Notes under the pieces: model-generated | The model's input: the letters and a program-made list of their open reading frames with translations, nothing else | Databases searched by the model: none | What the model was told of the DNA's origin: nothing | Made by a program: the position numbers and the translations under genes | Shown: piece by piece, positions 1,690 through 37,645 of the stretch | How positions within the stretch are numbered: the first letter of the stretch is position 1 | Layout of the letters: the number at the start of each line of letters is the position of its first letter | Assembly: GCF_963921235.1 (NCBI RefSeq) | Contig: NC_086097.1 | Coordinates: 40,240,001 to 40,304,000, forward strand | Origin: Mobula hypostoma | Taxonomy: Eukaryota | Reading direction: 5' to 3' | Length of the DNA: 64,000 nucleotides

Positions 1690-2640
1690 AGGAGAGGAAT
1701 ATTAGAAAGACTCATTTTCTCTGAATCTTGCTTCTTTAGATGCAACTTTGCAGTTCAAAATGATAATGATAATATAGGCTCTCCCAAATTAGGTAACCTA
1801 GTGCTCTTTTTGATTCTGCAAATTGACATTTTATCTTTTTCTCTGTCCCTTACAGTTTATTTATTTTTGTCTGCCCAACATGCTCTTTGTATGTGTCCTA
1901 CATTATTGCATTTTCTGCACGTTTCAACTTTAAATCTGCATTGGTTCGGTGTATGTGAGCATCTGCCACAAGGGTAATCCAATTTGTTCCACCAGGCAAG
2001 CCTCCATCTAGACACTGCAATTTTGTTCATTCTCAATTTCACTCTTAATTTCATTATTGAGTGCAACTCACTTGCACCTTTGTCTGCTCTTTCCATTGAT
2101 ACAACGATTTCATCTGCTCTTTTAAATGTGAGTTGTACTTCAGTTAGGAGCCGTTTTTGAATGGTTTCTTGTAAGATTCCACAAACTAAATGACCTCTCA
2201 GTGCATCATTTAGCCCATTACCAAACTGGCAATGACCAGACATTCTCTTCAATTCACCCATATACTGTATGCTGAAATGGACTTCCCTTCCTTTTGATCC
2301 TGCTCATGAAGTCTAAAGTATTTTGCAATCAACAATGGTTTTGGTTTCAATTGTTCCTGCATTACTTTCATGATATCAGCAAAACTCATTTTGGCTGGTT
2401 TTTTTGGAGCAATCAAACTTCTAAGCAAACCATATGCCTTTAAACCCAATGCACTCAGCAGAACAGGTACTTGTTTCTCATTGCCTATTTCAATTGCTTT
2501 AAAATACTGCTCAATTAGCTCAGTATGCATATTCAGTTTATCTCTTGTGCAACTGAATGTCTATCTTTCTGATGTAGCCTGTCATTTCTGCTCTTTTTAT
2601 TTATAATTATTATCACCCAGTGCTAACTGTTTATGAACCC
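1690..2640 (-). mobile_element. gag: Ty3/Gypsy LTR retrotransposon gag (frameshifted, 3'-truncated element)
   Basis: ATG at 2585 (MTGYIRKID); ORFs 2249-2530 and 1857-2261 with LRGHLVCG and CCHC knuckle CRKCNNVGHIQRAC. Confidence 0.9.
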
Positions 2641-2684
2641 ATGAATTCTTCCATTTAAAATAAAATTGCAGCACACTGCTGTGC

Positions 2685-3390
2685 AGCGGGACTTGGGAGT
2701 GCTTGTGCATAAATCACACGAGGTTGGTTTGCAGGCGCAGCAGGCAAATGGAATGTTGGCCTTCATTTGCTAGAGGGATTGAATTTAAGAGCAGGGAGGT
2801 AATGCTCTAACTGTGCAGGGTACAGGTGAGGCCGCATCTGGAGTACTGTCTGTAGTTCTGGTCTCCTTACTTGAAGAAGGATATACTGGCTTTGGAATTG
2901 GTGCAGAGGGGGTTCACCAGGTTGATTCCAGAGATGAGGGGGTTAGACTATGAGGAGAGATTAAGTTGCCTGAGACTGTACTCACTGGAATTCAGAAGAA
3001 TGAGAGGAAATCCTATAGAGACATAAAATTATGAAAGGGATAGATAAGATAGAGGCAGGAAAGTTGTTCCCACTGGTAGGTGAGACTAGAACTAGGGGAC
3101 ATAGCCTCAAGATTCGGGGGAGTAGATTTAGGAAGAGATGAGGAGGAACTGCTTTTCCCAGAGAGTGGTGAATCTGTGGAATTCCCTACCCAAAGAAGCA
3201 GTAGAGGCTACCTCAGTAAATATATTTAAGACAAGGTTGGATAGATTTTCGCATGGTCGGGGAATTAAGGGTTATAGGGAAAAGGCAGGTAGGTGGAGGT
3301 AAGTCCATGGCCAGATCAGCCATGATCTTATTGAATGGCAGAGCATGTTTGTTGGGCATAGTTACATACTCCAGCTCCTATTTCTTATGT
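2685..3390 (+). mobile_element. CR1 LINE 3' fragment inserted in the Gypsy leader
   Basis: RT C-terminus motifs (VRPHLEYC-like, RVVNLWNSLP) and CR1 3' end ctcctatttcttatgt. Confidence 0.9.
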
Positions 3391-3565
3391 ACTGCCTTTT
3401 CTTTTAACTTGACAGTCTCTCACTGTACCTGAAGAAGAATCTGCTATGCTGATTTTTTTTTTTACTTGACTGTTTCTCGCTGCACATTTTTTAACTCAAA
3501 TGTCTTGATGTGCTTCAACATGTGGGTAGTCATCTTGGGTTTGTTTAAAACTTCCTCATTGCCAA

Positions 3566-3805
3566 TGTTATGTTTGGTAACTCCAAAGCACTAAAACTAA
3601 TTGAAAGCGAAACAAAGGAGGTGGAGGATACTCATGCATGTTAATTTTTACTTTAACTGAGGCATGCACTCGTGCTGTGATGGCGTAATGACGTATCCCA
3701 TTTATGTACTTTTACATATAATGTGCAATGCATTATGCAAACGACAAAGAATGCTTAATCAAACAATACATTTCCAAATATTACTGAAATCTTAAATACA
3801 CAACA
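3566..3805 (-). mobile_element. 5' LTR of the Gypsy element, with adjacent PBS at 3553-3564
   Basis: Termini TGTT...AACA. On the minus strand the LTR is followed after 1 nt by TGGCAATGAGGA, a degenerate TGGCGACGAGGA-type Gypsy PBS. Confidence 0.75.
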
Positions 3806-3859
3806 GGCCACCTTTAGGATTCCATGAAATCAATATCATGAAGTGATGTATCATGCACA

Positions 3860-4690
3860 GTGTTAAAGTCTTGTTATGCTTGTCAATGTCAAGGAATACT
3901 ACCAAACACGTCTTTACCTATCCCCCCCGACATTCTGCTTTTCTGCTTTCTGCATGGATTGCTCTCTCCATGATTCCCTTGTCCATTCATCTCTTCCCAC
4001 CAATCTCCCTCCCGGCACTTACCCTTATAAACAGAATAAGTGCTATACCTGCCCATTCACCTCCCTCATCTCCATTCATGGCCTCAAATAGTCCTTCCAG
4101 GTGAGTCAACACTTCACCTGCAATTCTGTTGGGGTCATCTGTGGTATATGGTGCTCCCAAAGTGGCCTCCTCTACATTGGTGAGACCCAAAGTAAATTGG
4201 GGGGGGGGCACTTTTTCAAGCACCTTCATTTCATTCACAACAAGTAGGATTTCCCAAAGACCAACCATTTTAATTCCAATCCCCACATTTGTTCCAACAT
4301 ATCAGTTCATGGCCTCCTCTACTGCCATTATGAGATGACTTCCAGGATGGAGGAGCAACACCTCATATTTTATCTTGATAGTTTCCAACCTGATGGCATG
4401 GACATCAATTTCTCTAAATTTTGATATTTTCTTTTCCTTTCACATTCCCTTTTCTTCCATTCCCCATTCTGGCTCATCTCTTACTTCTCTTCTCCGCAGC
4501 TGTCTAGCATCTCTCCCTGGTGCCCCTCCTCCCTTCCTTTTACCCATGGTCCACTCTCTTCTCCTATCAGATTATATCTTCTTCACCTCCAATTAATTTT
4601 TCCTCCTATCATCTCTCTGCTTCTTACTTCATCCCCCCTTCGTCATCCACCTGACTTCACCTTCTAGCTTGTACTCCTATCCCCACTCTC
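3860..4690 (+). mobile_element. Penelope-like element 3' part (GIY-YIG endonuclease and pyrimidine-rich tail)
   Basis: CYTCPFTS...SFQVSQHFTC...CSQSGLLYIGETQ; MDINFSKF C-terminus; C/T-rich 3' region. Confidence 0.85.
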
Positions 4691-4928
4691 CATTGTGAGC
4701 TTTAAGAGTGTTTTAAGAATATTGTTTGAATTTAAACATGAATTAAATCACTGAAAATAAATGAACCGTGTTTTAAACTCCTTTGTTAGCCATAAGCATC
4801 TTCTCCTTAATGGGCGGGGGGGGGGGGGAACCAAGTGCTCGAATAGTGGATAATGGTAGTTACAATATTGGAATCTCAAAGTTGTATACTGTATACACAC
4901 TTCGATAATAAATGAACCTTTGAACCTT

Positions 4929-5505
4929 TATGAAGCTGATGGTCAAGGTAAAGTTTCGGTATGCCACCCTAAAAAAGATTTTAAAAAAATCAAATTCCTC
5001 CTGTCTACAAACAGGAATCCCTGATTTGAGAAGCCCTCCAGAGGATTTGGATACAATCATGGTGGTGGACAAGCCCCTTATGTGAAATTAGCGATGTTAT
5101 TCTGGTGGCCTTACATGTTGAGTGACTATAAGCAATTTGTTGCATATTGTAAGGAATATCTGGCCTATAATAAAGGAGAGTCCCAAGACCATCTACTATA
5201 AGATAAATAAAAGCAACTGCACCATTGCAGGTGTGGTAAGGTGACTATATTGACCTACTTCCTGTATCCCAAGGCAACCCACCATTTTGGAAACCTAATA
5301 AGTATACTTGTGATAATTGACCTTTGTACAGATATACGTGGTTAGTCTCCATGACAACTTGTAGTCAGACTGCAACCCCGTCACAGCACTCCAAAACTCC
5401 ATGTTCCCATATGCTGACACCCACACCTGCACGTATGCTGACTGAGTGTCTTCCGTTAGTGGTAAAGTCTTTCAAGCCATGTAGCCATGTGTGAACAACA
5501 GGCAC
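4929..5505 (+). pseudogene. pol: Foamy-virus-like integrase, N-terminal domain and first half of the catalytic core
   Basis: With frameshifts: YEADGQGKVSVCHP / QIPPVYKQESLI*EA / NHGGGQAPYVKLAMLFWWPYMLSDYKQFVAYCKEYLAYN / [17 protein letters not shown] / ILVIIDLCT / RYTWLVSMTTCSQTAT / VTALQ. Confidence 0.85.
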
Positions 5506-5507
5506 AG

Positions 5508-6045
5508 ATCAAAGTTCAAAAATTCAAAGTACATTTATTATCAAAGTAGGTATACGGTTTACAACCTTGAGATTCATCTCCTTACAGGCAGCCACAAAAC
5601 AAAGAGAACCCAAATAGAACCCATTGAAACAAAAGAAAACTTGAATACTTAATGTGCAGAGAGAGAAAAAAACAATTCATACAAAGAATAAAAGTAGGCA
5701 AATAGCACTTAGAACTGAAGTTCACAAAAGTGAATTAGTTGCAGGCCACGGCCTCAGTTCAGTAGAGAGACGAGTAAACCTCTTGGGGCAGCAAGCTGAA
5801 GTTCAGTGCAGAAATGAATAAATCTCCAAGCAGTGAGTTGAACACTGGCCTGACACTTGCCTCTGGCGCGGAAATCCTGACCTTTTCAAATTGGCCCAGC
5901 GCTTCAGTGGTCCAAACCTCAGGTTATTCATTGCTCTTGGACCTGGGCTCTGCTTTGCCTTGGGTCTGCCACATTGAATTGCCTCCAAGTATGCTCCAGC
6001 AATGGCCACACCTGGACTCATCCCCTCGAATTGGCCAAACGCGCT
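5508..6045 (-). mobile_element. Non-autonomous non-LTR element with Rex1-type 3' end, inserted in the integrase
   Basis: Begins caaagttcaaaaattcaaagtacatttattatcaaag; the same terminus occurs at about 14503, 54088 and, inverted, at 4865-4928 and about 45890-45920. Confidence 0.65.
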
Positions 6046-6049
6046 TTGC

Positions 6050-6498
6050 TGCATACAAGTGGAGTATAATACTTCATTCCAGCTTCTATCAAGTGGCAAA
6101 GTTGAGTGAAGGAATCGAGAGATTATGTAGGGCTTGGCAAAAGTGATCTACTATAGAGGCAAAATAGGCTACACTTGTCCATAAACAAAGTAGATTACAC
6201 CTCATTTCTTAACATACAATGTCCCCCTAAATACACCCCTGATTGCTAACTCAGGCCAACCATCGCCTACACCAGGGGACTGCAAAAGGAAAAAAAGTTG
6301 CATAAAAATAATTTTGACCCTAGTTTCCAAACTAAGTGGAAACTGCCTTGTCTTGTTACCCAGATTATCAACAATATGACTATGGCAATCAAGACTGGGT
6401 GGAGAAACAAGACTGTAAGTAAAGCTGTCTCCAAAGATAATATCAAACCTGTCCCAGTACGATTTACTCCCCCAGAACGAGTGGTGCTTTTATGTTAG
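6050..6498 (+). pseudogene. pol: Foamy-virus-like integrase, end of core and C-terminal domain
   Basis: SSGKVE*RNREIM*GLAKVI from 6089; PSFQTKWKLPCLVTQIINNMTMAIKTGWRNKTVSKAVSKDNIKP in ORF 6298-6498. Confidence 0.88.
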
Positions 6499-6589
6499 AC
6501 CGGTATATGGGTCCACCACAGAACTCCTACACCCCGACAAGAGGTGGATGTATTGAAAAGATAAAACACATGTTTAGATCTGAAAAGAA

Positions 6590-7255
6590 ATGAAAAACTT
6601 GTTCACTGAGGAACATCTCATTGATACATTGCCCAGGGATAATACATCCAGACTGCATTGTTGTTTACAGAGTAAGGCAGACTCAAACTTCAGGAGGAAA
6701 TGATGCTTTTGCTGTATTTTACTTTTACTATGTATAGTACTGTTAATTTCTGCCTTATTTACTATTTGCTTTCTCACAGACGAAGTTGCATTTAATGTGG
6801 AAATTGTCTCATCTGGCTCAGTCACCCCTAAAGCTTAATGACTCAGAATATTATTAGAGAGGATCTGTGATCAATAATTCTGCTTTAGATATCAATAAAT
6901 AGCCCTGATCTCTTAGTCATATGTGAACTAATACACTGAAACCCTAACCCTTGTCTGTGGCAAATTGATAGCTCCTGTCCACTTAAGTATTTACTCTGAT
7001 GTCATTGCAGATGAAATGAACGTATGGACAGACAAAGAACCACTTGCAGAAATGATTATTAACACCTTAACAAAACTGAAATATTCTAGCCCAGATATTG
7101 AAGGTCAACTAATAGAGGAATCCTTGACTTGCATCCCTTTTGAAGGGATACACTTGAAAGAAAAGTATAGACACTGTTATGTAATTGAATGATCCCACTC
7201 ATGGGAACATGTCTTCGAAATAGTTAGACTGGACCGTTGTGAAAACCCCTATTTT
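6590..7255 (+). pseudogene. env: Foamy-like env: leader peptide with signal/anchor helix and SU N-terminal block
   Basis: RRK*CFCCILLLLCIVLLISALFTICFL...FNVEIVSSGSV (6692-6825); LSIYSDVIADEMNVWTDKEPLAEMIINTLTKL...EKYRHCYVIE*SHSW...LDRCENP (6965-7250). Confidence 0.8.
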
Positions 7256-7284
7256 TTTTAAAGCAGATTTCTCCAGTAAACACA

Positions 7285-7878
7285 TATTATTTCACGAACA
7301 AACTCTTCTCAGGCTTCCAGCTGAGTACAGATATTGATTTTAAATGATGTTTTGATGATGAGCTCTGCCATCTTCATCAGGGATGATGTCTGGGCATGTC
7401 TAGTCCAATGGCATTTAAACCCCATCGTCCATCCTTCCTGATTAGTTAATCCTCATTCAGTCAGGTTTCCTCTGTCCCACCTTGTTTACAATTGAGTGAA
7501 ATCTTTATCTTTATTAAAATTATTTTCCTCTAGTTTTATTTCAATGGCTTCCTTCACCAAGTGGTCCCAAAAGCCATTGAAATAAAACTAGAGGAAAAGA
7601 ATTTTAACAAAGACCAAGGTCTCACTCTAAATAAGAACTGAAATTTGATAGTAAACAAGGTGGGACAGCAGAAACCTGATTAGATGAGGACTAACCAATC
7701 AGGAGGAACAGGTGATGGGGGTATAAATATTACTGCACTAGAAATGCCCAGGCATCACTCCTGATGATGGTGGTAGAGTTTATCATTGAAACATAGGTTA
7801 GAATCGATATCTGTACCCGGCTGGAAGGCCGAGAAGAGTTTATTCATCATATACTCTGGGAAAGCACTAGATCCTTTT
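7285..7878. mobile_element. Penelope-type inverted-repeat (fold-back) element inserted in env
   Basis: About 7295-7550 is an imperfect reverse complement of about 7575-7848 (aactcttctcaggcttccagc versus gctggaaggccgagaagagtt). Confidence 0.75.
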
Positions 7879-7910
7879 TTCATGTCTTATTGCACTTTCC
7901 CTTTTTGGCC

Positions 7911-8235
7911 AAAAAGGTATCTGAACATACTTACTATGAAGAGTTCAGATGTTCCCTTGTTTCCAATTATGGCTACTATTCCAATCCATTGTTAAATGTC
8001 ACAGTAACATAACAATTTTATGCATTTCTAGGTTATGTTCTAAATAGTTCAGTGAAGCCTTTGATTTGGGTTTCGCATGGGGAAGATCAGATGCTAAGAT
8101 CCACTGAAGCAGAACGTAAGATGAAACTAAAATGCTGGTCAACTGAAACTGGTAAATCCAATGGGCTTTTTAGAGATTTTATTCTTAGCGTCTTTTGTAT
8201 CTACCCAGATTTCTTATTTGCCCATAATTAAACAG
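7911..8235 (+). pseudogene. env: Foamy-like env SU middle block
   Basis: About 108 codons in one frame with two stops (about 8010 and 8229): FRCSLVSNYGYY...KLKCWSTETGKSNGLFRDFILSVFCIYPDFLFAHN*T. Confidence 0.8.
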
Positions 8236-8264
8236 TCGTTTAATTATGGGTAAATAATTAAACA

Positions 8265-11200
8265 GACCATAAGATAGAGGAGAAGAATTAGGCCACATGG
8301 CCCGTTGAGTCTGCTCTGCCATTTCATCATGCTGATCCATTTTTCCTCTCAGCCCCAATCTCCTGTCTTATCCCCATATCCTTTCATGCCGTCTCTAATC
8401 AAGAATCTATCACCTCTGCCTTAAGTATACCCAATGACTTGACCTCCACCACTGCTTGTGGCAAAGGACTCACAGATTCACCACTCTCTGGCTAAAGAAA
8501 TTCCTCCTCATTTCTGTTCTAAGAGGATGCCCCTCTATTCTGAGGCTGTGTCCTCTAGTCTTTGACACCCCAGCATATCCTCTCCACATCCACTCTGTTG
8601 AGGCCTTTCAACATTCAATAGGTTTTAATGAGGTCACCCTTCATTTTTCTGAATTCTATTGAGCACAGGTCCAGAGCCTCATATGAAAAGGCTTTCAATC
8701 TTGGAATCATTTTTGTGAACTTCCTTTGAACCCACTCCAATGTCAGCACATTATTCTTAGATAAGTGGCCTACAACTGCTCAGAATACTCCAAGTGAAGC
8801 CTCCCCAATGCTTTATAAAGCCTCACCATTACATCCTTGCTTTTATATTCTAGTCCACTCAAAATGAGTGCTAACATTGCATTTGCCTTCCTCACCGCCT
8901 ACTCAACCTGCAAGTTTGCCTTTAGGGAATCCCGCATGAGGACACTCAAGGCCTTTGCACCTCAGACTTTTGAATTTTCTTTCCATTTAAAAAATAGTCT
9001 ACACTTTTATTTCTTCTACCAAAGTGCATAACTATACACTTTCTGACACTGTATTCCATCTGCCACTGGTTTGCCTATTCTCCTAATCTGTGTAAGTCCA
9101 TAAATTCTCTTTACTTCCTCAAAACTACCTGCTCCTCCACCAATCTTCATATCATTCACAAACCTAGCCACAAAGCCATCAATCCTGTCATGTAAGTCAT
9201 TGACATATTAATGTAAAAAGAAGCGGTGCCAACACAGACCCCTGTGGAACACCAGTGTTCACCAGCAGCCAATCAGAAAAGGCTCCCTGTATTTGTACCT
9301 TTTACCGACTGCCAATCAGTTAAAGCTTTATCAAAGCTAGAATCTCTCCTGTAATACCATAGGTTCTTAACTTGTTAAGCTGCCTCATGTGTGGCACCTT
9401 GTCATCGGCCTTCTGAAAATCCAAGCACAAATGATCTACTAATTCTTCTTTGTCTATCCTGCTTGTTATTTCTTCAAAGTATTCCAATAGATTTGTCAGG
9501 CAAGATTTTTCCTTGAGGAAACCATGCTGACCATGGCCTATTTTGTCATGTGGCTCCAAGTACCCTGAAACTACGTCCTTAACAATTGACTCCAACATTT
9601 TCCCAACTGCTGAGGTCAAACTAATTGGCCTATAAATTTACCTTTTTCTGTCTCTCTTTTCCTGAAGAGTGGAGCGACATTTGCAATTTTCCATCCTCTG
9701 GAACCATGCCAGAATCCAATAATTTGTGAAAGATCATTACTAACATCTCCTGAATCTCTTCAGCCACCTCTTTCAGAACTCTGGGGTATATCCCATCTGG
9801 AACAGCTGGCTTATCTACCTTCAGACATTTCGCTTTCCCAAGAATCTTCTCCCTAGTAATGGCAACTTCATGCATTTTTGTCCCTTGACACTCTCAAACT
9901 TCCATCATACATTTAGTGTCTTCCACTGATGCAAAATACTTATTCAGTTCATCCACCATTTCCTCGTCCTCCATTACTACCTCTCCAGCATAATTTTCTA
10001 GTGGTCCAATATCTACTCTCGCCTTTCTTTTACACTTTATGTATCTGAAGAAACTTCTGGTATCCCTTTAACATTATTGGATAGCTTATATTCATGTTCC
10101 ATCTTTTCCTTCTTAATGACTTTTTAGTTGCTTTCTGTTTCTTTTTAAAAGCTTTCCAATTCTCTAACTTCCCACTAATCTTTGCTCTATTATATACACT
10201 TTCTTTGGTTTTGTGTTGGCCTTGACTTCTTTTATTAGCCATGGTTTTGTCATCTTTCCTTCAGAATACTTCTTCCTCTTTGGGATGTATATATCTTGTG
10301 CCTTCCGAGTTACCGGGAGAAATTTCAGCCATTGCTGCTTTGCTGTCATCCCTGCCAGTGTTCTTTTCCAATCAATTCAGGCCTTTACTCCACTGTAATA
10401 CTGATACATCTGACTAGCTTCCTTTCTCAAATTTCAGTGTGAATTTGATCTTATTATGGTCACTTCACTAAGGGTTCCTTTACTTTAAGCTCTCTAATCA
10501 ATTCTGGTTCATTGCACAACACCCAATTCAGAATAGGGAACCGCTCGTGGGCTGAATCATAAACAGCTCTAAAAAGCCATCTCATAGGCATTCTAGAAAC
10601 TCCCCCCTCTTGGGATCCACTACAAACTTGATTTTCCCAATTTTACTGCATATTAATATCCCCCATGACGATCATAACTTTTGATATGCATTTTGCATCT
10701 CTTGTGATAATTTGTAGGCCATATCTTTACTACTGCTTGGGGGTCTGCATACAACATTGTATCATTTCTTAATGCATGCATGCATTTCTAAATGACAATA
10801 AATGAGGACTGAGAGTTCTCATAATCTAACTCCCATCAGGGGCTTTTACCCTTGAAGTTCCTTAGCTCTACCCACAATGATTCAACACCTTCCAAGCTTT
10901 TGTGACCTCTTTCTAATAATTTGATTTAATCTTTTACCAACGGTACTACGGCACCACCTCTGCCTACCCATCTGTCCTTTCGATATAATATGTATCCTTT
11001 GACATTAAGCTCCTGGCTATGATTCAGTGGTGCCTATATGTCCTACGTGACAATCTGTAACTGTGCTACAAGTTCATCTACTCTATTCCATGTACTGCAT
11101 ACATCCAAATATAACCCCTTTGTTCCTATATCACCTTTCTCGATTTCGTATGCCCTTTACATTTTTGCCCTATTGTCAGACTCTCCTTGCTAGCAGTCTC

Positions 11201-12740
11201 ACTACACATTGCCTCTATTTTTAAACTAACTACCTCATCCTCAGCATTATCACTCCAGTGCCCATCTTCTGCCAAATTAGGTTAAATCTCTGGAACAGAG
11301 CTAGCAAACCTGCCCACAAGGATATTGGAGCAACACACATTAAATGCTAGAGGAACTCAGCAGGCCAGAGAGCATTTATTGAAAAATGTACAGTCAACGT
11401 TTTGGGCCGAAACCCTTTGGCAGGACCAAAACACCAACTGTACTTTTTTCCATGGATGCTGCCTGGCCTGCTGATTTCCTCCAGTATTTTGTGTGTGTTA
11501 CTCAGATATCTAGCATCTGCAGATTTTCTCTTGTTTGCAAGGATATTGGTCCCGTTTGGATTCAGGTGTAATCCATCTCTTTAGTACAGGTCGTACCTCT
11601 CCCAGAAGAGATCTCAATGATAAATAAATATGAACCCCTGCTCTCTGCACAAGTTCCTCAGCCACGCTTTCATCTACCAAATCATCTTTTTCTTACCCTC
11701 ACTGGTACATGGCATCAATCCAGAGATTACCACTTTGGAGGTCCTGTTTTTCAGCTGTCTACCTAGCTCCTTAAAATCTCTGTTCTCCTCACCTTTCCTA
11801 CCTATGCCATTGGTGCCAATATGTACCAAGACTTCTGGCTACTCCCTTGAGAATTCTGCAGACCTGATCTGAGACCCTGGTACCTAGGAGGCAACATAAT
11901 GTACTGTCCGGGTGTCTCTGTTATGCCCACAGAAACTCATCTCTGTCCCTCTAACTATGGAACCTCTTTTCAGCACTGCAGTCCTCTTCATCCCTCTTCT
12001 CTTCTGAGTCACTGCACCAGACTAGGTCACTGTGGCTCCCACCTTGTAAGTTGTCCCCCTCAACAATATCCAAAGTAGTATAACCTATTATTGAGAGAAA
12101 TGGCCGCAGGGATACTCTGCACTGGTTGTGCATTTCTTTTCCTTCTCCTGACAGCCGCCCAGTTACCTGCCTCCTACAAATTAGAGGTGACTATATCTCT
12201 GTAGCTCCTATCACCTCCTCATTCTCCTGTCTGAGCGGAAGGACGTCAAGCTGCAGCTCCAGTTCTTTAATACATTCTCTGAGGAAATGCAGCTCAGTGT
12301 AACTGGTGCAAGTGTGGTTATCCGGAAGACTTGAAGTCTCCCAGAACTCTGACATCTCACACGCAGGACAAAACACTGCTCCTGGAGCCACTCTCACTGC
12401 AGTACTGTGCCCTAACAGATGAGAAATGAAGAATTCAGAAGAAAAATAGAAACTTATGAGATACTTACCTTGCCCAAGGTTGATCTCACCCTAGCCTGAT
12501 TAGCCAAAGCCACTCTAAACACTGGCCCATTCACCACAATGGCCGTTCAAGACTTGCGCTTAAAATATTTTTGTTCACCTTTTCAAATGGATCCTGCTCA
12601 ATGGATCTTGATCAATGGATCCTTCTTCAACCTGCATTTTTTGGAGTCCAACTCCAAAAAACTGACGTGAATTTCTGTCTTTTTAATCTTGACTGTCCAC
12701 CTGATTTAAGAGACAGTGTCTGACGTAATGATGTCAGTGT
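8265..12740 (-). mobile_element. Near full-length degraded CR1 LINE (ORF1 and ORF2) inserted in env
   Basis: 3' tail at 8265; RT motifs QHGFLKEKSCLTNLLEYFEE and DFQKADDKVPH; ORF1 CPACEM...IKELELQLDVL zinc-finger/leucine-zipper region at 12191-12397. Confidence 0.92.
11329..11537. mobile_element. Short Penelope-derived palindromic element with 12-bp TSD
   Basis: caaggatattgg at 11317-11328 and 11538-11549; internal aaatgctagaggaactcagcaggcca versus tggcctgctgatttcctccagtattt. Confidence 0.85.
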
Positions 12741-12749
12741 AAGGTGCCT

Positions 12750-13592
12750 ATTGTTGGTTTGATTGTAATTGAAGTAAAGGGCTGCAGCTTTTGTTAAGCA
12801 CATAAAATGACTCTCACCTGTTTTCTTGACAAAATCCTACTATTTTCAGACAAGTCTTCAATTATTGCTGTGTATTCAGTTGCATGATGTTGTTGTCAAC
12901 AGGCAGAGGTAAAAAAAACAATTTTGCTCTAAACAGTTTTCATGATTTTTAACAAAATATTAGAGTGAAATTGCCTGCATTGACAGTGCACATTCTCACA
13001 ATAACACTGACCTGATCCTTTGGTTCACTCGGAAGGGAGAAATTTCTGATGAAAACATACTGCTATCAGAGGCTCACTCGCTTTTTAAGGTTTATAGAGG
13101 AAATGACTCTTTGGAGTAATTTGATCATTTAATCTATGTTGCATATCTCAAAACAGAAACACAAGTCCAGTTTTAAGGAATGATTTTTGATAGATGCAAC
13201 GAAGAATGTTCCATAAGGACTTGATATTCATTAACAATGACCAGAAGAAACTAAATTAAAATTGAACTTAATCAAATCGCAGTAATATTTCTCTGTATAT
13301 TATGAGAATAACTGAAATGACACAATAAAAAGTGAGAAACACCTCCTTTCACAAGTTTCCTTTCCAGACTCATTTTTCATACTAAACCTTTGACTAGCTT
13401 AACGCTCCAGTTGAAATGATAGCTAAGACTTTTCCAGCTGTTGCAAATTTAGCTTCTGCAGCAGCAAATTCAGTTCCTGGGTGTGTTGGCACTACTTTAA
13501 ATTGGACTTAGAGACGACTTTTTGCAGTTTTGCAGTGGAGAATTCCCTTAGCTATTGGAATTATTGTTTTCATATTCTTTTTGTTGAGATGA
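12750..13592 (+). pseudogene. env: Foamy-like env TM C-terminal part with membrane-spanning domain
   Basis: 13407-13592: PVEMIAKTFPAVANLASAAANSVPGCVGTTLNWT*RRLFAVLQWRIPLAIGIIVFIFFLLR*. The 12750-13400 part is assigned mainly by position. Confidence 0.7.
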
Positions 13593-14502
13593 AGTCTGCA
13601 AGGATGGAAGTGTGGTGACTTTTGTGTTTTGTACAGCAGTTCCACTCCTAAGGCTTCATTAACTTCCATACCTAACCTGCACTACTGTGGGTTTTATCTC
13701 ATATGGTATATACTTCCTCGTACTTGCCTTTTACCTATTCCTCTGGTTCATCCTTAATCCTAGAAGAGTGAAGAGCAGGGGCTGCCCTGATCCTGCTACC
13801 CTTGCAACTCTCCTTTACCTAGTTCTGATCACTAACGTGACACATGGGTATTAACTGGTCTAATAACACAATCCCACAGAAAGATGAGTATTCAAAGATT
13901 ATTTTTTTACTCATGTATTTGGATGTTGCATATTTACTTTGCAACATGGGTAACTTCATATATATGGTCCTTAACATTTTATACCTTGTAAATGCCTTGT
14001 TCATTGCTAATGATGATACTACTCTATCGTGGTTTACTACTTTGACTTTTAAAACCATCTGTCATATACTTTTTATACGTTGGGAAAAGAATTATCAGGA
14101 GGAGAAAGATCATTATCCCTGAGGAAGGCAATAGTCCTGATAGCCTTTTTACCTATTCTGTTGTGATTTCTTCAGAAATGATGAGGTAATCCTAGTACCT
14201 CTAAGGTCAATAAAGTGTTTTATTGTCACAAGGTAGAAATAATTAAATGTGCTTTACTTACTCTTTAGGTACAAGTATATTGTATGTGATACTCCAAGGA
14301 ACACTAAACCTACCAATACTCCTATTCATATTATATCTAATATTACATTTACATTAATAATTTGTAAATGTGGTTGATAAAATCCCATGGTTTGACAGAA
14401 CAGATTGAGTAGTCCTTGCTCAGTTAAGTTTTCTGGGAAAACATACAAGTTCTTATTTTGGTCCAATCCTTAACAAAGTAAAGGGGGAAGAAATGAACAA
14501 TT

Positions 14503-15120
14503 AAAGGTTCAAAGGTTAATTTATCATCAAAGTGTTCAACTCTGAAATTCTTCTTCTCCAGATAGCCACAAAACCAAGAAAGAAAAGAACAGCAGCACGA
14601 TCATCCACCGCCAAACCCTCCCTCCCTGCACGAAAGAAACAAATAAAAATGGAACAGGCCCATCAACCCCCAATCCCCCTCTCCTGCACACACAAAAAAA
14701 CTGAGAAATATTGGTTTAAAAAAAAGAATAGAGAAAACTGTAAGACTGAAAAAAGAAGTCTATAGTCCAAGTCCATTCCCTCTCTAGTAGCAGAGTGATC
14801 CTACCAGCGATCAAAAGGCAGTCTCCCCTCTCCAGAAGCAGAACGATCCCACCAGAGATCAAAAGGCAGGCAGCCAGCGCTCACCCTTTGCAATCACCTC
14901 AATTGTTTCAATCTCCCTCGTCACTTTAATAAGCGAACAGTGGAAGCTTTAATCAGCAAAATGGAGTCGAACATCGGCTCGCACCTCATATCACATGAGG
15001 TTTGTGCTCGCTGGCTCTGTCTCCTGGAATCCTCTCAGAGACTGTAGAGCGCTGAAACACCCAAAAGATCTCCAAACTGCAAATCGCAGGCTCCAACAGT
15101 CCAAAATCCCTTTCAATTAT
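14503..15120 (-). mobile_element. Non-autonomous non-LTR element with Rex1-type 3' end
   Basis: aaggttcaaaggttaatttatcatcaaagtg terminus shared with the 5508 copy. Confidence 0.6.
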
Positions 15121-15982
15121 ATGCAGAGTTCAGCATCACGAATATAGAGAGAAACTTGTATAGATGGTATGGTTGGTATGAGAATATTAAGGTACAACAG
15201 AGCAATGTGTGATCGCTCCAAGGGAGTGATATAACCACATCTTATGTTGTGATGTTCTTTTCTGGGAGCTTAGAATTAAAGGTATAGACAATTCTCTACA
15301 GGAGAACAGTACTCTTCCTGACTTTTGTGAATGTTTTTATGCATATCATTATATAGTGGAATTGTGTAGCTGATTGAGATAATTAAAATGTAAGATTACT
15401 AATCTTAAGGTAAAGAAGACAGCAGTACACAGTCAGTAATTTGTTTACAAGACTTGTTTTCAGGAAACTTGAGCAAAGTTATGCATCATATCAAAAGCAA
15501 ACCCATGTGAAAGAGATGAACTATCCTCATTTTATTGACAGACATGCCAGCAGACCTGATAAGCTAATGGTGGCAGAGACAGTAATTAGTACTTACAACA
15601 AGAAAATGCCAAGAACTGTATGTGGGAAAGAAGATTTTAAAGATTGACTGATATGGGCTAATAATATGGGCATTGATACATTGTTATTGCGTGTTTATAG
15701 AAGATTATTTTAGTAACGTTCCTTTGAGGTTTGGGAAATTTGTGCAGCAGAGATTGAGGAAATGAGAACTCTAAAGAAAAAATCATACAGGAACCCATAC
15801 TTTGGGCAATGCTTGATGCGTGGTTTGAGCATCAGAATGAAGGGAACCTTTTCTAGCACTGGTAACCTACTGGAATGGATGAAGAAGTGACAGTCAGTTC
15901 CCAAGAGGTGTGTTGACAGGTCTTGATATCGAAGTGATATCGGTAGCAAGAAGGTGGATTAGAAATCTTCACTTAGCAAGGT

Positions 15983-15995
15983 GGGGGGAGGGGGA
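15983..15995 (+). other. Candidate 3' polypurine tract of the provirus
   Basis: ggggggaggggga followed by tatgg (possibly decayed TGTGG), about 2.4 kb downstream of env. Confidence 0.3.
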
Positions 15996-18218
15996 TATGG
16001 TAAATATTCACTCCTTGGATACTTTGCTAACCTTGCTTTCGAAACACAGCATCTTTTAAAGTGGAACAGTTGAAAGTAAACTTCCAACTAACAATTTATT
16101 TAACTTCTAATTGTAAATGAAAGCCAGCCTACAGTTCTTAAAATGTGAATGAAAAGTATTCTTGAAAGAACAGCTTTGCAAATAGGCTCAGTATTTTGAA
16201 GACACTCTGTCTCTAAGAAGTCACTGTAGCTGCTTAATTATTGCTCGAGTAGAGTATGGGATAATGAGTTCGTTGATTTGGGTTATTTTAGGGCAGACAG
16301 GCTAACTCTTAAGTTGCTTAGCTCAAGGAAGCTCATAGAACATGTATAATATAATTTAGCATATCAATTACTGATGTGTTTATAGTTTGAAAGGTTTATG
16401 TACTCAAAGAAGTTAGCTTTACAGCATTAATACCAAGATCTATGTCCCCAAATGATGCTTTTAAACCATGTGTTGAAAGGATATCTGAGGAAATATCACA
16501 TGCTTATGAAGTCTCTCAAGTGGCTGAAAAGGGGTAGAAACATAGAGAGCACTTCAGGCTTGTTAGGAATTGAGCAAGCAACATCAAGAAACATGAAAGA
16601 ACTAGAATCCATTCATCCAGCTTTGGTTTCTGTCACAGGCACTTGTTAGTATGCATCTTTTGTATATCTTTTTAGATTACAGGAATTGTACTTGTTTTGG
16701 GAATCCTTTGTCCTTTTCGTGTTATCCTTTCTGTTTAAGGAATGCTTAATGCTTTAGATTTTGGAAATGGTTTGTGTTATAGAAATGATTTGTATTTTGG
16801 AAATGTTTTATAATGTTTCAAGTTTCAAGATAATAATTTGATAATTCAAGATAAGATAGAAATCCTCTGAGTTTTAAAAGTGTTTCAAGAATGCTGTTTG
16901 GATTTTATCATGTACCGCTGAAATTAAACGAATTGTGTTTTAAATTACTTTGTTACCTGGAAGCTTTTTCTCCTTCCTGGGGAAAGGGGACCCACTGCTT
17001 GAATACAGCTAAACTCAGCGTGGAGAATCAATAGGGAAGTAAATTAGTCTTTGAAGATTGGGTAGTTACTGTATAATCTCCCTTTAGTAAGAGTACTTGT
17101 GGCTATTTACTGTATATCCGATAGGGCTTAAAATCTTCATTTGGGTTTAAAACTTCACGGTCAGCAAGCCCAATACCATCATAATCAAATGACTTTTGGC
17201 GTGGATACCTAAGTACCTATTACAGAAAGTGGCTTCGGATATTATTGGATTTCATGATAATGAGGTTTGACAATTTATTTGCATCAGAATCCTATTTAGC
17301 AAATAAGTTAAATTCACTTATATTAAATTCCTTGAGCCAGCACTGAAAACACGATCCTGTGGTTAATTGAGATTTTCATATTGATGGTGGCTTTTGATCT
17401 TTTTATTCAGTACCTAATATATAAGTTGCACAGTGCACTTATAAACATGAATAACAGTACAATCTTTAATTACGAATGAGACCACTTGGGAAATTAGATT
17501 TTCATGTTGATGTGTCAGTTTTTTTAGTGATTAAGTGGTTAATTGCTTTACAGCTGAAAAGACATCTGTGTTTTTGGGAGCTGGTGCTGAAGTTAATCAA
17601 AGCAAGACTGGAGGCCACACATATTCTTACTACAGGAATGATTCTACTGTTAGAACAGATCAGTGGTGGTTTTTGAAGAGACCTTCTTTTCTACATCTCT
17701 TAAGATAAATGTAATTAATATGCTTAGTGGTCTTGGGTGCTGTCTTGAAAATTTAATTAAATATTGAACAATTAAAAATTAATATTTCTCCTGCACCTGC
17801 TTTTTGTTTTTCTTTATCCCTTTTGATCTCTATGTAGTCACATTAGTGATTTAGTAAACATTTACCTTCTTGATCGATTAGGTACAAGTTATATAAAGAT
17901 GAGGAATATACTCAAAGACTCTGCAGTTGTGATTTTTTTTGTTTCTGTTGAATCCTTCTGTAATATATTTTGAAAACTATCTGGAACAGTGTTTGAATAT
18001 GTGTGCCAGGGCCAAACTAATTTCTGTACCATTCAAACATTAGCACAGGTTTTGCAATCTTCCTGAGACTATGGGCTTGATGATAAAATTACAACTATTG
18101 CCCATAACCTCAGAATAAGAAGGTGGCCATCTCCTTCAATATTTGGATTCCCATGATGACTTCAGATAAGGAATTGCCACCCTATTGAAGATGAAAGGTC
18201 AACAGATATGAGTCCAAG

Positions 18219-18837
18219 TTAGACACATCAAAGTTGCTGGTGAACGCAGCAGGCCAGGCAGCATCTCTAGGAAGAGGTACAGTCGACGTTTCAGGCCAAG
18301 ACCCTGCGTCAGGACGAACTGAAGGAAAAGTGAGTAAGAGATTTGAAAGTGGGAGGGGGAGGGGGAGATCCAAAATGATAGGAGAACATCGACTTCTCTA
18401 ACTTCCGCTAATGCCCCACCTCCCGCTTGTACCCCATCTGTTACTTACTTTTATAAACATTCTTTCTCTCACTCTCCTTTTTCTCCCTCTGTCCCTCTGA
18501 ATATACCCCTTGCCCATCCTCTGGGTTCCACCCCCCCCCACTTGTCTTTCTTCCCGGACCTCCTGTCCCATGATCCTCTCATATCCCCTTTGCCAATCAC
18601 CTGTCCAGCTCTTGGCTCCATCCCTCCCCCTCCTGTCTTCTCCTATCATTTTGGATCTCCCCCTCCCCCTCCCACTTTCAAATCTCTTACTAACTCTTCC
18701 TTCAGTTAGTCCTGATGAAGGGTCTTGGCCCGAAACGTCGACTGTACCTCTTCCTAGAGATGCTGCCTGGCCTGCTCCATTCACCAGCAACTTTGATGTG
18801 TGTTGCTTGAATTTCCAGCATCTGCAGAATTCCTGTT
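18219..18837 (+). mobile_element. Young Penelope-like 3' fragment with inverted terminal duplication and TSD
   Basis: 18222-18387 is a near-perfect reverse complement of about 18637-18803; tgagtccaag flanks at 18209-18218 and 18838-18847. Confidence 0.9.
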
Positions 18838-19017
18838 TGAGTCCAAGGTAAGTTGGTTTAGGACTTGGATAGAAACTGGAAGGTGCCAACATGATCCTTC
18901 TTGCCGACCTTGCTGGTAGATATTGAAGGGTGTGAAATTCTGCTATGCCCTCTGCAGTGCCAATTTACCAGTGATGAAGGGCAGATGAATACTGTGATTG
19001 TTGACAAGAACACCTAA

Positions 19018-19490
19018 ATAGTAGTAGTAGTAGTAGTAGTAGTAGTGCAACTACTTGAGTTGAGTATGATGTTCTCCAAAGAAGTTGTCTATTGGTAGGT
19101 CCTCAGGTGGATTCCCTTAATGGTGAATGCCTCTGCACAACTCTGTTTCATGTGCTGAGGGTGATGCATATGCAACCATCACACTGTCCTTGACAGACTG
19201 GGGTCAGGAACCAAGGGCATAGAGTGCAAGACAACTGAGGACCCTTCACTGCTATTGTAATGTGTCATCAATTTCCACCAACTCCACTGTAGAGGTCTTG
19301 GTGGGATTGCTCTTTGCTTGGAACTTCTCCTTGATCTTACTGCCACATGTGACCCTACAGGAGCTAAGTGCCTCATGGCTAAACTCCAGACATCACTCTC
19401 AGGAACTCTCAGAAACTCTCAAGCCTCTCCACCAAGACAAGGTGATGATCTGAGAATCATCACCTTGTTGTCTTGGAGAGGCTTGTGTGT
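19018..19490 (-). mobile_element. Internally deleted RTE-type element with (TAG)n tail
   Basis: (TAG)n at 19018-19045; RTE-like 5' UTR motif accttgttgtcttggagaggcttgtgtgttcc near 19460-19492. Confidence 0.55.
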
Positions 19491-19911
19491 TCCCACCTAA
19501 ATTGTACTTTGACTGGAAGCACATCAATGTTGCATCATTGTCTCTTGGTCCAAATTCTGGGAATTCCATCCCCAACAGAGCTCTGTCGGAGTACCTTCAC
19601 AAGGACAGGAGTGTTGGAGCTCTTTCATGCTTTGGAATGACCATCTGGGGCAACAGTACCCTTCAAGCTCGGGCGCTCCTCCTCCCCGATTGTTAGTTGA
19701 TTATTTTGCCCTGTCTTGTTTCAGTGCACTGCCTGTGCCTTGTTTCTCTTCTCTATTTGTTCTCTCTGTTTAGTTTGCCTTTGCTCGGTCTTGTGTTTAC
19801 CCATCCTGTGTGTAGTGATTCTTGAGGCCTAGTCGATATTCTCAACAAACCAATCCACAAGTAAAGATACTTCTTTCAACTCTGTCCTTTCCTTTTTTCA
19901 ACCTGATTGTG

Positions 19912-19993
19912 GCTGATCAGCCATGATCACAGTGAATGTGATTACTGGCTCGAAGGGCCGAATGGCCTACTCCTGCACCTATTGTCTATTGTC
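19912..19993 (+). mobile_element. CR1 extreme 3' end
   Basis: gatcagccatgatc...ggctcgaagggccgaatggcctactcctgcacctattgtctattgtc. Confidence 0.85.
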
Positions 19994-20744
19994 AACCCCA
20001 CCCTCATCTCTAGTCTCCTCTATACTGGTCCACCTGGTCTAAGCCTCTCCCATTGATTGAAGAGACCATAACAACCCCTAATCAAACCCAGCCCAGCAAC
20101 CACCCCTGTTATTGCCCAATTACTGATGGGCAATAACTACCAGCTATACAGGTATTTAGAAAAATGGCTTGTCTTTGGTAACTGGAAACTCAAACATTTT
20201 TAAGGTATTGATGCTGATATTTTTTAACAATCTTTAATAGATTTCATTATAAAAATAGTCAAGCAGACATGCTTCCCCGTTGAATATTATGTGAACATCT
20301 CCAGGAATCATTGGCTTTATCAACATGATACATGTCCATCGAATTCACAGATCTTAATTTAGCAAGCCAAGTGAAACCACCTTTATGTCTTATTTTGCTG
20401 AAATATCAAGTTATTGATTATAGAAGGAAATCAAATAAAGTTATTTCACTGTATGAAACAATCCTACATGATGCACAGTGATTGAAAAGCCTTCTGTCTA
20501 AGCAGAATGAAAGATGAAGTAGCTTCAAAGTTTGATATGCTTGATATTACAGTGCAATCATTATACCCTGAGCCAAGCAATGCTGCAAATTTGTAATTAC
20601 TTTTGATAGCAGTCAGCCAATTGCTAGTCCACATTACTATATCCATTTACTTTGCTGTGCAAATGCAAAGACTTGAATTCTCTTATGGAATGAAAAACAA
20701 AGTTAATTTATATTGAGAGCATCAAACTACAATGGAAGAATTTC

Positions 20745-20890
20745 ACAAACAAAAGAAAATCTTCAGATGCTGGAAATCCAAGCAACACACACAAAATGCT
20801 GGTGAACGCAGCAGGCCAGGCAGCATCTATGGAAAGGAGTACCGTCGACATTTCCGGCCGAGACCCTTCAGAAGGACTGAGGAAGGGTCT
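20745..20890. mobile_element. Penelope terminal fragment
   Basis: gatgctggaaatccaagcaacacacacaaaatgctggtgaacgcagcaggccaggcagcatctatgg. Confidence 0.8.
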
Positions 20891-21105
20891 AGCTTTAACC
20901 CGTTCTCTAATTTACTGAATTGGATGAAAATAGGGTATCAAATCAGAGACAACCAAATTAATTATACCCTGACATGCCTTTTATACATGGATGATTTGAA
21001 ATTATGCACTCTTTCATCGGTAAAGCTAAAGCATTAATTCAGAGAGTAGGACTATGTTCTAAAGATATAAACATGAACTTCAAGGGTTAAAAAAATCTGC
21101 AAAAC
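20890..21105 (+). mobile_element. R4/Dong-clade non-LTR retrotransposon, RT core fragment
   Basis: NPFSNLLNWMKIGYQI...LTCLLYMDDLKLC...SKDINMNF. Confidence 0.8.
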
Positions 21106-23425
21106 AGAGCTCTATAATGGCAATGAGAGCACCTGAAGAGTGCCATCCAAAATGCAGCTGTCGAGGTAGTTGTGTACTCCTCAAGAAGAAACAGGGACTG
21201 CTTTGATTAAAATGATGTTGAAACACGGAACCTGCTCCAAAAGAAACACTCCTCCCAGCATTTGGTGCTGTCGAGACCCGACACCCAAGCGGCCAAGGCA
21301 GAATACAGAGCTTCATGCAGCACCCTGCGTGCCAAACTGAGTCAGATGCAAAACGATTGGTGGACTGCCCTAACAGAACGAACGCACCGCTATGCAGACA
21401 CCGGCAACATTCGAGGCTTCTACAAATTGTTGCCTGTAGTGTATGGTCTGACTCTTCAGGTTCAAGCCCCTCTACTCTCATCCAATGGCTCCAGCCTGCT
21501 GACGGACAGGAAGCCATCATGAAGAGATGTACAGAGCACTATGAGAGCCATTTGGGGGATAATCGTCAAGTACGAGAAGCATCCATTGAATGATTCCAGC
21601 ATGAGGTCAGGCTTAAGGCTGATGGCCCACCAACTCTGGACGAGGTCCAAGCTGCCACTTCCAAGCTGAAATGCCATAAAGCTCCAGGCATTGATGGGAT
21701 CCCAGTGGAAGCATACAGAATGGGTGGAGACATTCTCCTGAGCGAACTCATAAAGCTGATCACACGCTGTTGGGAGAAACGTTCAGTCCCAAATGAACTT
21801 TGCAGCATGTAATTGTCTCCCTATATGAAAACAACGGGTAGAAATTAGATTGCTCAAACTACAGAGGCATTACCCTGTTGTCCTCCACTGGGAAAATCCT
21901 CACCAGAATTCCCTTGGACAGAATCATCCCTACCATTACCGAATGCAACCTCACAGAGAGTCAGTGTGGATTCAATGTGAACAGCGGCATATCCAACATG
22001 ATCTTTGTCCTGCGCCAGATACAGGAGAAGTGTCGTGAATAGAACATGGGACTGTACGTGGAATTCATTGACTCGACCAAGGCCTTTGATACATTCAGCT
22101 GTGATGGTCACTGGAAGATTCTGTCGAAGCTCGGCTGTCCCATGAAATTCCTCACTATCCTACAGCAGCTCCATGAAGGCTAAAGAGGTCAGGTTAAATA
22201 CAACGGTGACAGTCTGACCCGTTCCCCATCAGTACTGGTGTGAAACAAGGCTGTGTTTTAGCACCTACGCTCTTTGCCATCTTTTTCAGCGTTATGCTGT
22301 GGGAAGCGAGAGGAACCACCTCGAAGAGCATCTACATTCAGTTCCGCATTGATGGAAATATCTTCAACATCGGCCGCCTTCTCGCCTGAACAAAATCCAT
22401 GCAGGAGCCCATTCTCGAGCTACTATATGTGGTGGATGGTGCTCTTCTCGTGCACACAGAGGATGCCGTACAGGCTGCAGTCACTCAGTTCATTGAGGCT
22501 GCAAGGGCTGTCAGGTTAACAGTCAGTCTGAAGTAAACAATGATCCTCCATCAGAAGCCCCCTCATGGTGTTTACAACCCAGCTCAGATCACCATTGAAA
22601 ACCATCATCTCACCACAGTTGAGCAGTTAACCTACCTGGACAGTGTCATCTCCAACAACACTACGGTAGTAAGGGACGTTGACAATCGACTCACCAGAGC
22701 CAGCAGTGCCCTCAGGCATCTCCAGAAACATGTGTGGAAGAACCATCAGCTGTGTTTATCCAGAAAAATCCAGGGGTACAGAGCTGCCGTCGTTACAACA
22801 CTGCTATACGGCTCCAAAGCCTGGGTCTTGTACCAGAAGCAAATCTGGTTGCTCAAGCACGTCCATCAGTGCTGCCTCTGCTCCATCATGGTATCACCTG
22901 GCAGGATCGTGTCTCCAATCACGAGGTCCTGGAGAAGGCTCAACTTCTAAGCACTGAAGCCACTTTGCTGCTCAAGCAGCTCTGCTGGTCAGGCCACATG
23001 CCTCACATGGACAACAACTGCAGATTATCGAAAGCAGTACTCTACAGAGAACTCTCTCAGGGCAAGAGAGATCTTGGTGCCCCGTGCAAGTGGTACAAAG
23101 ACCAATTTAAGGAGCAACTTTCTCAGGGAAAAATCGAAGTCAAGGAGTGGCAGCAGCTGGCTTATGACAAAGACTGCTGGAGGAGGCTGATTCACAGAGC
23201 AGCCAAGAATTTTAAGGATTCCGGAAGAATGGCTGCTGAAGAGAAGAGGAAATGCAGGAAGGATCCTACTACCCAAGTGCTCTCATGCCAGCTGTTTCCA
23301 CTTCCGCACTGCTCCAAACTCTGCAGATCCAGAACTGGCCTCCACAGTCAGCAGAGATTGTGGTATCTCTCCTGAGGACTCTTCTTCCCTCTTGATCTTC
23401 GCAAGCGAAGAACTGGCCATAAGTA
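21106..23425 (+). mobile_element. RTE (BovB-like) LINE, 5'-truncated and degraded
   Basis: KAPGIDGIPVE, NYRGITLLS, GVKQGCVLAPTLF, YRAAVVTTLLYGSKAW; C-terminal CSKLCRSRTGLHSQ. Confidence 0.9.
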
Positions 23426-36461: not shown

Positions 36462-37645
36462 AAAAGGCCTTTGACAAGGTGCCACATAGGAGATTAGTGT
36501 GCAAACTTAAAGCACACGGTATTGGGGGTAAGGTATTGGTGTGGGTGGAGAATTGGTTAGCAGACAGGAAGCAAAGAGTGGGAATAAACGGGACCTTTTC
36601 AGAATGGCAGGCGGTGACTAGTGGGGTACCGCAAGGCTCAGTGCTGGGACCCCAGTTGTTTACAATATATATTAATGACCTGGAAGAGGGAATTAAATGC
36701 AGCATCTCCAAGTTTGCGGATGACACGAAGCTGGGTGGCAGTGTTAGCAGTGAGGAGGATGCTAAGAGGATGCAGGGTGACTTGGATAGGTTGGGTGAGT
36801 GGGCAAACTCATGGCAGATGCAATTTAATGTGGATAAATGTGAAGTTATCCACTTTGGTGGCAAAAATAGGAAAACAGATTATTATCTGAATGGTGGCCG
36901 ATTAGGAAAAGGGGAGGTGCAACGAGACCTGGGTGTCATTATACACCAGTCATTGAAAGTGGGCATGCAGGTACAGCAGGCGGTGAAAAAGGCGAACGGT
37001 ATGCTGGCATTTATAGCGAGAGGATTCGAGTACAGGAGCAGGGAGGTACTACTGCAGTTGTACAAGGCCTTGGTGAGACCACACCTGGAGTATTGTGTGC
37101 AGTTTTGGTCCCCTAATCTGAGGAAAGACATCTTTGCCATAGAGGGAGTACAAAGAAGGTTCACCAGATTGATTCCTGGGATGGCAGGTCTTTCATATGA
37201 AGAAAGACTGGATGAACTGGGCTTGTACTCGTTGGAATTTAGAAGATTGAGGGGGGATCTGATTGAAACGTATAAGATCCTAAAGGGATTGGACAGGCTA
37301 GATGCAGGAAGATTGTTCCCGATGTTGGGGAGGTCTAGAACGAGGGGTCACAGTTTGAGGATAGAGGGGAAGCCTTTTAGGACCGAGGTTAGGAAAAACT
37401 TCTTCACACAGAGAGTGGTGAATCTGTGGAATTCTCTGCCACAGCAAACTGTTGAGGCCAGTTCATTAGCTATGTTTAAAAGGAAGTTAGATATGGCCCT
37501 TGTGGCTACAGGGGTCAGGGGGTATGGAGGGAAGGCTGGGTTCTGAGTTGGATGATCAGCCATGATCATAATAAATGGCGGTGCAGGCTCGAAGGGCCGA
37601 ATGGCCTACTCCTGCACCTATTTTCTATGTTTCTATGTTTCTATG
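36462..37645 (+). mobile_element. Young 5'-truncated CR1 with uninterrupted 355-aa RT C-terminal ORF (36479-37546)
   Basis: SGVPQGSVLGP, KFADDTKL; no stops; (tttctatg)3 tail. Confidence 0.97.

Follow-up and report, generated by a model that had tools for sequence, protein, structure and literature searches.

Decayed remnants of probable accessory genes in the interval from env to the 3' LTR of a multi-copy foamy-like endogenous retrovirus in Mobula hypostoma

In mammalian foamy viruses, the stretch between env and the 3' long terminal repeat (LTR) carries tas (bel1) and bel2/bet (PMC8003144), and it is this same genomic position that the segment examined here occupies. Teleost foamy-like endogenous retroviruses (FLERVs), including AciFLERV/AcERV, AliFLERV, DrFV-2, and PpERV-1, are described as having two or three unknown ORFs after env, some of them under purifying selection (PMC5210030, PMC5512871); post-env unknown ORFs are found here too, as remnants. 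The accessory proteins of teleost FLERVs were compared through their published descriptions (PMC5210030, PMC5512871). For amphibian endogenous foamy viruses (NviFLERV-1, with acc, and ERV-Spuma-Rbi, -Smu, and -Ame), the same position is reported to hold putative accessory genes, one or two in number, that have no known relatives (bioRxiv 10.1101/2020.12.18.423569). The elephant shark element CmiFLERV has a foamy-like Pol, as here, and is described with pol as the only gene detected (PMC5512871), whereas LTRs, env, and a post-env cassette are present here in hundreds of copies. As far as the available text of four reports on shark spuma-like ERVs goes, no accessory genes are given for these elements (PMC10699275, PMC4422223, PMC8227577, bioRxiv 10.1101/2021.11.23.469661). 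Nor was a description of the present cassette found in the literature on foamy-like ERVs that was searched, with most subscription papers lying outside that search.

The window (the whole 64,000-nt stretch of contig NC_086097.1 that was analyzed) carries the segment between an env stop codon (13590-13592) and a polypurine tract with the 3' LTR (15998-17181), which confirms the accessory-gene position assigned to it in an earlier note made from the letters of the window. That note had recognized no repeat here apart from one insert; genome-wide this is wrong, since 314 candidate places were found in the host's own genome for window 13550-14500 and 325 for window 15130-16100, with long matches of both halves at 66-78% identity (40 places scored per half). 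Env sequence is joined to the segment in 18 of 20 10-kb stretches of other copies, hand-picked as the most complete-looking matches, and 13 of the 20 extend to the 5' half of env or to integrase; the linkage to env in other copies that the earlier note had raised is thereby borne out. Because it is multi-copy, joined to env, and placed before an LTR, the segment is viral, an internal part of a multi-copy foamy-like ERV, and not host DNA. In the window copy it is split by a later insertion specific to this locus, a 610-nt retroelement fragment on the minus strand (14504-15113) flanked by a 6-bp duplication, CAATTA (14498-14503 and 15114-15119). The bounds given earlier for this insert (14503-15120) were nearly right and are corrected here by means of the duplication. 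Matches at 0 of 58 non-self loci have the insert between the segment halves, which abut at 14503/15114 in many other copies. The insert matches repeats elsewhere in the window and belongs to a very abundant retroelement; contigs of other organisms lie over it at very high depth. In another copy (L153:1404-2090), a member of this retroelement family inserted independently, at a different cassette site and in the opposite direction.

Stop-to-stop ORFs of at least 50 aa that overlap window 2000-22000 number 152. At the 5' end of the window copy, an LTR remnant (4694-4866, plus strand) matches the 3' part of the LTR (75% between 4696-4814 and 16868-16981, with the LTRs of other copies matching 4693-4866) and directly adjoins integrase; no 5' part of this LTR was found upstream of the remnant in the window. 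With the remnant set against integrase (window 4694-4930), gag, protease, and reverse transcriptase (RT) have been lost from the window copy. The broken integrase end of pol (4926-6498, plus strand) is interrupted by other DNA at about 5505-6100 and is collinear in other copies. It gave a Pfam Integrase_H2C2 match at E=9.7e-5, below the curated cut-off, and a PDB sequence search with its C-terminal piece gave no match. A broken 5' part of env (6500-8240, plus strand, start approximate) is placed by its position and its collinearity in other copies; 7290-7880 within it is absent from other copies, and Pfam gave no match to this part. LINE-like inserts separate it in the window copy from the 3' part of env (12847-13592, plus strand), which ends in a hydrophobic anchor and then the stop, the latter common to 22 of 26 copies. 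Both parts are assigned to a putative env from position, from the C-terminal hydrophobic anchor, and from a presumed likeness of the 3' part to foamy Env.

Several other features were observed in the window and beside neighboring copies. A 360-aa open frame at window 36464-37546 (plus strand) encodes a LINE-type reverse transcriptase, which we take to be of a CR1/L2-like family, and is the youngest-looking of several related window copies. Beside another provirus copy, a 1,090-aa open frame (L094:4822-8091, minus strand) is probably a young LINE. At window 18215-18809, a common short repeat occurs twice in inverted orientation, as 172-nt arms that are 94% complementary and 251 nt apart, and window 42364-42543 holds three imperfect tandem-like copies of 71 nt, at spacings of 47 and 62 nt.

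The polypurine tract (15979-15997, plus strand) was read from the window sequence, and in 30 of 49 matched stretches at least 10 of the 12 nt that precede the LTR are purines. The 3' LTR that follows is 1,184 bp long (15998-17181, plus strand), with bounds taken from the ends of other copies' matches and TG...CA as the ends of the family. Window 16000-17200 has 3,485 candidates in the own genome, about ten times the number of internal-part candidates (solo LTRs). Both ends could be located in 10 of 19 LTR loci examined; among these 10, three have perfect 4-bp flanking duplications, two have duplications agreeing at three of four positions, four continue into internal sequence, where no duplication is expected, and one is unresolved. 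A long LTR with TG...CA ends and a 4-nt target duplication, by which foamy-like ERVs are recognized, is thus found here. One other copy, L086, keeps its 5' LTR and, after it, a primer-binding-site-like 16-mer, seen in this copy only, which presumably resembles a tRNA-Lys primer-binding site. The gag-pol part of the same copy contains an array of about 68-nt units (L086:2565-3076). GGGTG at the border of the polypurine tract and the LTR is described as a feature of foamy-like ERVs (PMC5210030); here that border is G-rich and variable, with GGG/TG in 6 of the 49 matched stretches.

The window copy lacks RT. An 81-aa RT piece of another copy (L085) had five PDB matches (7O0H, 7O24, 7O0G, 7KSF, and 7KSE), all of them foamy Pol (best E=1.7e-8). 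Among 45 matches, no younger intact foamy-like pol was found, the longest open frame being 145 aa. The foamy Env domain PF03408 was detected neither in the window frames nor in a genome search with a stricter filter, whereas amphibian endogenous foamy viruses carry a Foamy_virus_ENV domain by CD-search (bioRxiv 10.1101/2020.12.18.423569); the Env of teleost FLERVs is also described as lacking detectable homology (PMC5210030).

The earlier note had pointed to three frames on the plus strand of the segment. Stop to stop, these span 13841-14122, 15414-15647, and 15717-15890 (93, 77, and 57 aa, respectively), but taken one by one within the window none exceeds the length expected by chance, and the start of the first is local to the window copy, where about 55 nt present in other copies are absent at 13851/13852. 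The window's own frames are chance-length mosaics of old frames. From other copies, 82 non-redundant natural pieces out of 113 were aligned, and the share of copies with a stop was counted for each position and frame. The five longest sense runs from env to the LTR in these 82 pieces measure 119, 98, 92, 86, and 81 codons, a sum of 476 versus 275 expected under a dinucleotide null (0 of 2,000 simulations). On the antisense strand the sum was 317 versus 317 expected (P=0.46), on the sense strand of the LTR 213 versus 192 (P=0.23), and in the env 3' control 308 versus 221 (P=0.0095). A column-shuffle null agrees for the cassette and misses env (P=0.15). The method was checked on 30 pol copies, where one frame had 12 shared stops versus 52 and 44 in the other two. 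Taken singly, the accessory segments showed no significant periodicity in base composition (the best P was 0.06). Calling frames by codon usage was dropped because it failed cross-validation, with 11 of 21 cases correct. Because the excess of long stop-free runs is confined to the sense strand, the segment was very likely once coding, and the proposal of the earlier note that it holds remnants of accessory genes is supported.

Several frame steps are near ties (for example, 18 versus 17 copies), so the number and borders of the ORFs given here are provisional. The ORF-A remnant (13676-14112, plus strand) comprises about 160 hydrophobic codons, with shared stop-free runs at 13673-13972 (119 codons) and 13885-14110 (81 codons), a shared ATG near 13703, and one ambiguous frame change near 13890-13970. 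The share of T at codon position 2 is 0.45 versus 0.35/0.37 (P=0.04-0.055); for the env anchor, used as a control, it is 0.61 versus 0.39 and 0.47 (P=0.07). The product of ORF-A is predicted from sequence to be a small multi-pass membrane protein, a prediction with modest support because hydrophobic windows occur in all three frames of this T-rich region. Shorter overlapping open runs of 30-57 codons (14113-14395, plus strand) may be the start of ORF-B or the tail of ORF-A. The ORF-B remnant (14396-15357, plus strand), split by the insert into 14396-14503 and 15114-15357, has shared stop-free runs of 98 and 92 codons, and copy L019 has a natural 132-aa frame for it. Nine shared stops, in all three frames, cluster at 15357-15407. 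Beyond them, the ORF-C remnant or remnants (15410-15975, plus strand), predicted to be soluble and helical, consist of open runs in shifting frames, 52, 51, and 86 codons long; the 86-codon run extends to the polypurine tract. AlphaFold models from two shallow alignments were of low confidence (pTM 0.33 for ORF-C and 0.36 for the other). TATAA is common to 12 of 26 copies at about 13632 and to 33 of 44 at about 15378; no canonical TATAAA in the 3' end of env is shared among copies. On the minus strand, a 107-codon run without shared stops overlaps ORF-C (window 15637-15959), and antisense runs in the LTR are nominally long (P=0.03).

Protein searches with the ORF-A and ORF-B alignments, and a search of the window's 93-aa ORF among longer proteins, returned nothing at E<=0.01. 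The ORF-C profile had one match among 1.84 billion representatives, P0001, a 1,722-aa repetitive protein matched via four summed repeats, which was rejected as spurious. Pfam searches with 21 window reads and 23 natural pieces gave only sub-threshold noise in the cassette, PDB sequence searches with three profiles gave nothing below E=0.17, and Foldseek searches of BFVD and PDB with the ORF-B model gave nothing at E<=0.001. In the ESM Atlas, ORF-A fell among unnamed clusters at 0.81-0.85 without a usable match, and ORF-C had none; Rfam gave no match in window 1-30000. ORF-A may resemble IFITM/CD225 over five residues, and ORF-C may contain something like a BC box; neither lead had Pfam support, and both were rejected. 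Within a sensitivity limited by decay, no sequence or profile similarity to Tas/Bel2 was found in Pfam, PDB, or protein collections, nor any fold similarity between mammalian Tas/Bet and the cassette ORFs, in agreement with the absence of Tas or Bet motifs reported earlier. Three natural pieces were searched against the own genome, and the 150 places scored for each yielded no intact copy; 12 places that were fetched, including those with the longest frames, are broken copies whose long frames come from neighboring inserts.

The family is old. Measured against the commonest letter of each alignment column, pieces of other copies are 10-20% different (median about 13%) and the window copy 15-16%; the divergence is star-like with little sub-family structure. 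One exception is a 20-nt deletion (9 copies, near window 14445) that tends to occur together with a 10-nt insertion (6 copies, near 15830), at P=0.006 before correction for the 21 pairs compared, a hint of a template sub-lineage. The locus is covered at about 97-99% by contigs of organism B. Of the contigs of organism E, one crosses from the LTR into host DNA, with 37 differences over 684 nt, and another crosses the insert's right junction, so provirus and insert both predate the split from that organism. Breaks are shared widely among copies. In env, no frame is open across 13117-13420, stops are shared (one by 11 of 13 copies and another by 15 of 19, for example), and breaks occur at single-base runs; shared breaks of this kind recur in the 5' part of env and in the cassette. 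Many shared stops are present in 75-95% of copies. Pol keeps one frame over about 2 kb and is far less damaged than env and the cassette, but it carries three shared stops of non-CpG type, at one of which the copies divide 13 to 7, and is therefore not clearly intact. Collecting copies to restore the ORFs, as suggested earlier, thus recovered shared open runs but no clean ORFs, because the breaks are common to most of this genome's copies. It is likely that the family spread from already-defective templates. Copying inside a genome in cis or with helper proteins has been described (PMC8922424), and foamy RT is reported to make more insertions and deletions than HIV-1 RT (PMC8003144).

Taken as a full account, the env-to-LTR part of this multi-copy foamy-like ERV is probably the decayed remains of a cassette that held two or three accessory genes specific to this lineage. 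Single-copy host DNA between unrelated repeats, which the earlier note had named as the finding that would overturn its reading, retains next to no probability: it is refuted by the copy counts and the linkage to env, and no point in its favor was found. It is also quite unlikely that a single longer gene, possibly a captured host membrane-protein gene, takes the place of two or three native accessory genes. Open runs do tile most of 13676-15357 in changing frames, as in the broken env, and hydrophobic windows recur at about 14245-14330 and 15310, but the nine shared stops at 15357-15407 close all three frames, the matches fetched from protein searches of the own genome are copies of the ERV family, and neither Pfam nor PDB gave a match.

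A long non-coding spacer or 3' regulatory region, with open runs arising from composition by chance, is very improbable. The sense-only excess over both shuffle and dinucleotide nulls speaks against it, as do the ORFs described at the same position in known foamy-like ERVs (PMC5210030, PMC5512871); the lack of homologues, the weak codon periodicity, and the fact that T-rich DNA reads as hydrophobic in any frame are what it would explain. Equally improbable is a history in which the cassette was coding and the virus amplified, still intact, by reinfecting the germ line, with alignment drift or mutation hot spots at single-base runs accounting for the breaks that copies share. Such a history would fit the bimodality of several frame steps, the slight sub-family structure, and the concentration of breaks at single-base runs, which are unstable after integration too. 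Against it, the shared stops occur in 75-95% of copies that differ by only about 13% from the column yardstick, and the same method keeps one pol frame open over about 2 kb.

If the segment is a decayed accessory cassette, its genes would, by analogy with foamy viruses, have been expressed from spliced or internal-promoter transcripts. The ORF-A product might have worked at membranes of the host, with a surface or restriction protein as one possible target, and ORF-B and ORF-C may have had Tas/Bet-like regulatory or counter-defence roles without sharing sequence with Tas or Bet. A burst of copies would have come from templates with env and the accessory genes already broken, largely by slips at single-base runs, after which Gag/Pol, acting in cis or supplied by a helper, would have let the family multiply within the genome; env and the accessory genes would thus have served infection and not intracellular copying. 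The accessory genes are now non-functional fossils. By position, the cassette works like the acc region of fish FLERVs, and in total length it is presumably similar to the mammalian tas/bet region. Tas is a nuclear transactivator, whereas the first ORF here looks membrane-bound by prediction. The accessory genes of teleost FLERVs are described as lacking transmembrane motifs (PMC5210030), in contrast to the predicted hydrophobic ORF-A. Compared with the teleost elements, the present one shows no evident additional ORFs from pol to env, and all its copies are old and broken.

What these genes did is read from position and analogy, since no intact copy or homologue was found, and this limits the value of the finding. 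The host group of CmiFLERV is, we presume, related to that of the present host. A tentative and rather doubtful extension is that this is the first env-plus-accessory layout for a foamy-like virus of cartilaginous fishes and that the Tas slot would hold a multi-pass membrane protein from a new family, an early membrane-acting counter-defence factor that would have been discarded with env on the switch to intragenomic copying. The cassette extends the complex, accessory-gene-bearing foamy-like layout to another deep lineage, and it suggests that accessory genes at the post-env position were reinvented, possibly including a membrane protein of a kind reported missing in teleost FLERVs. With a mostly open pol beside commonly broken env and accessory genes, the family offers a natural test of which genes are needed for intragenomic multiplication.
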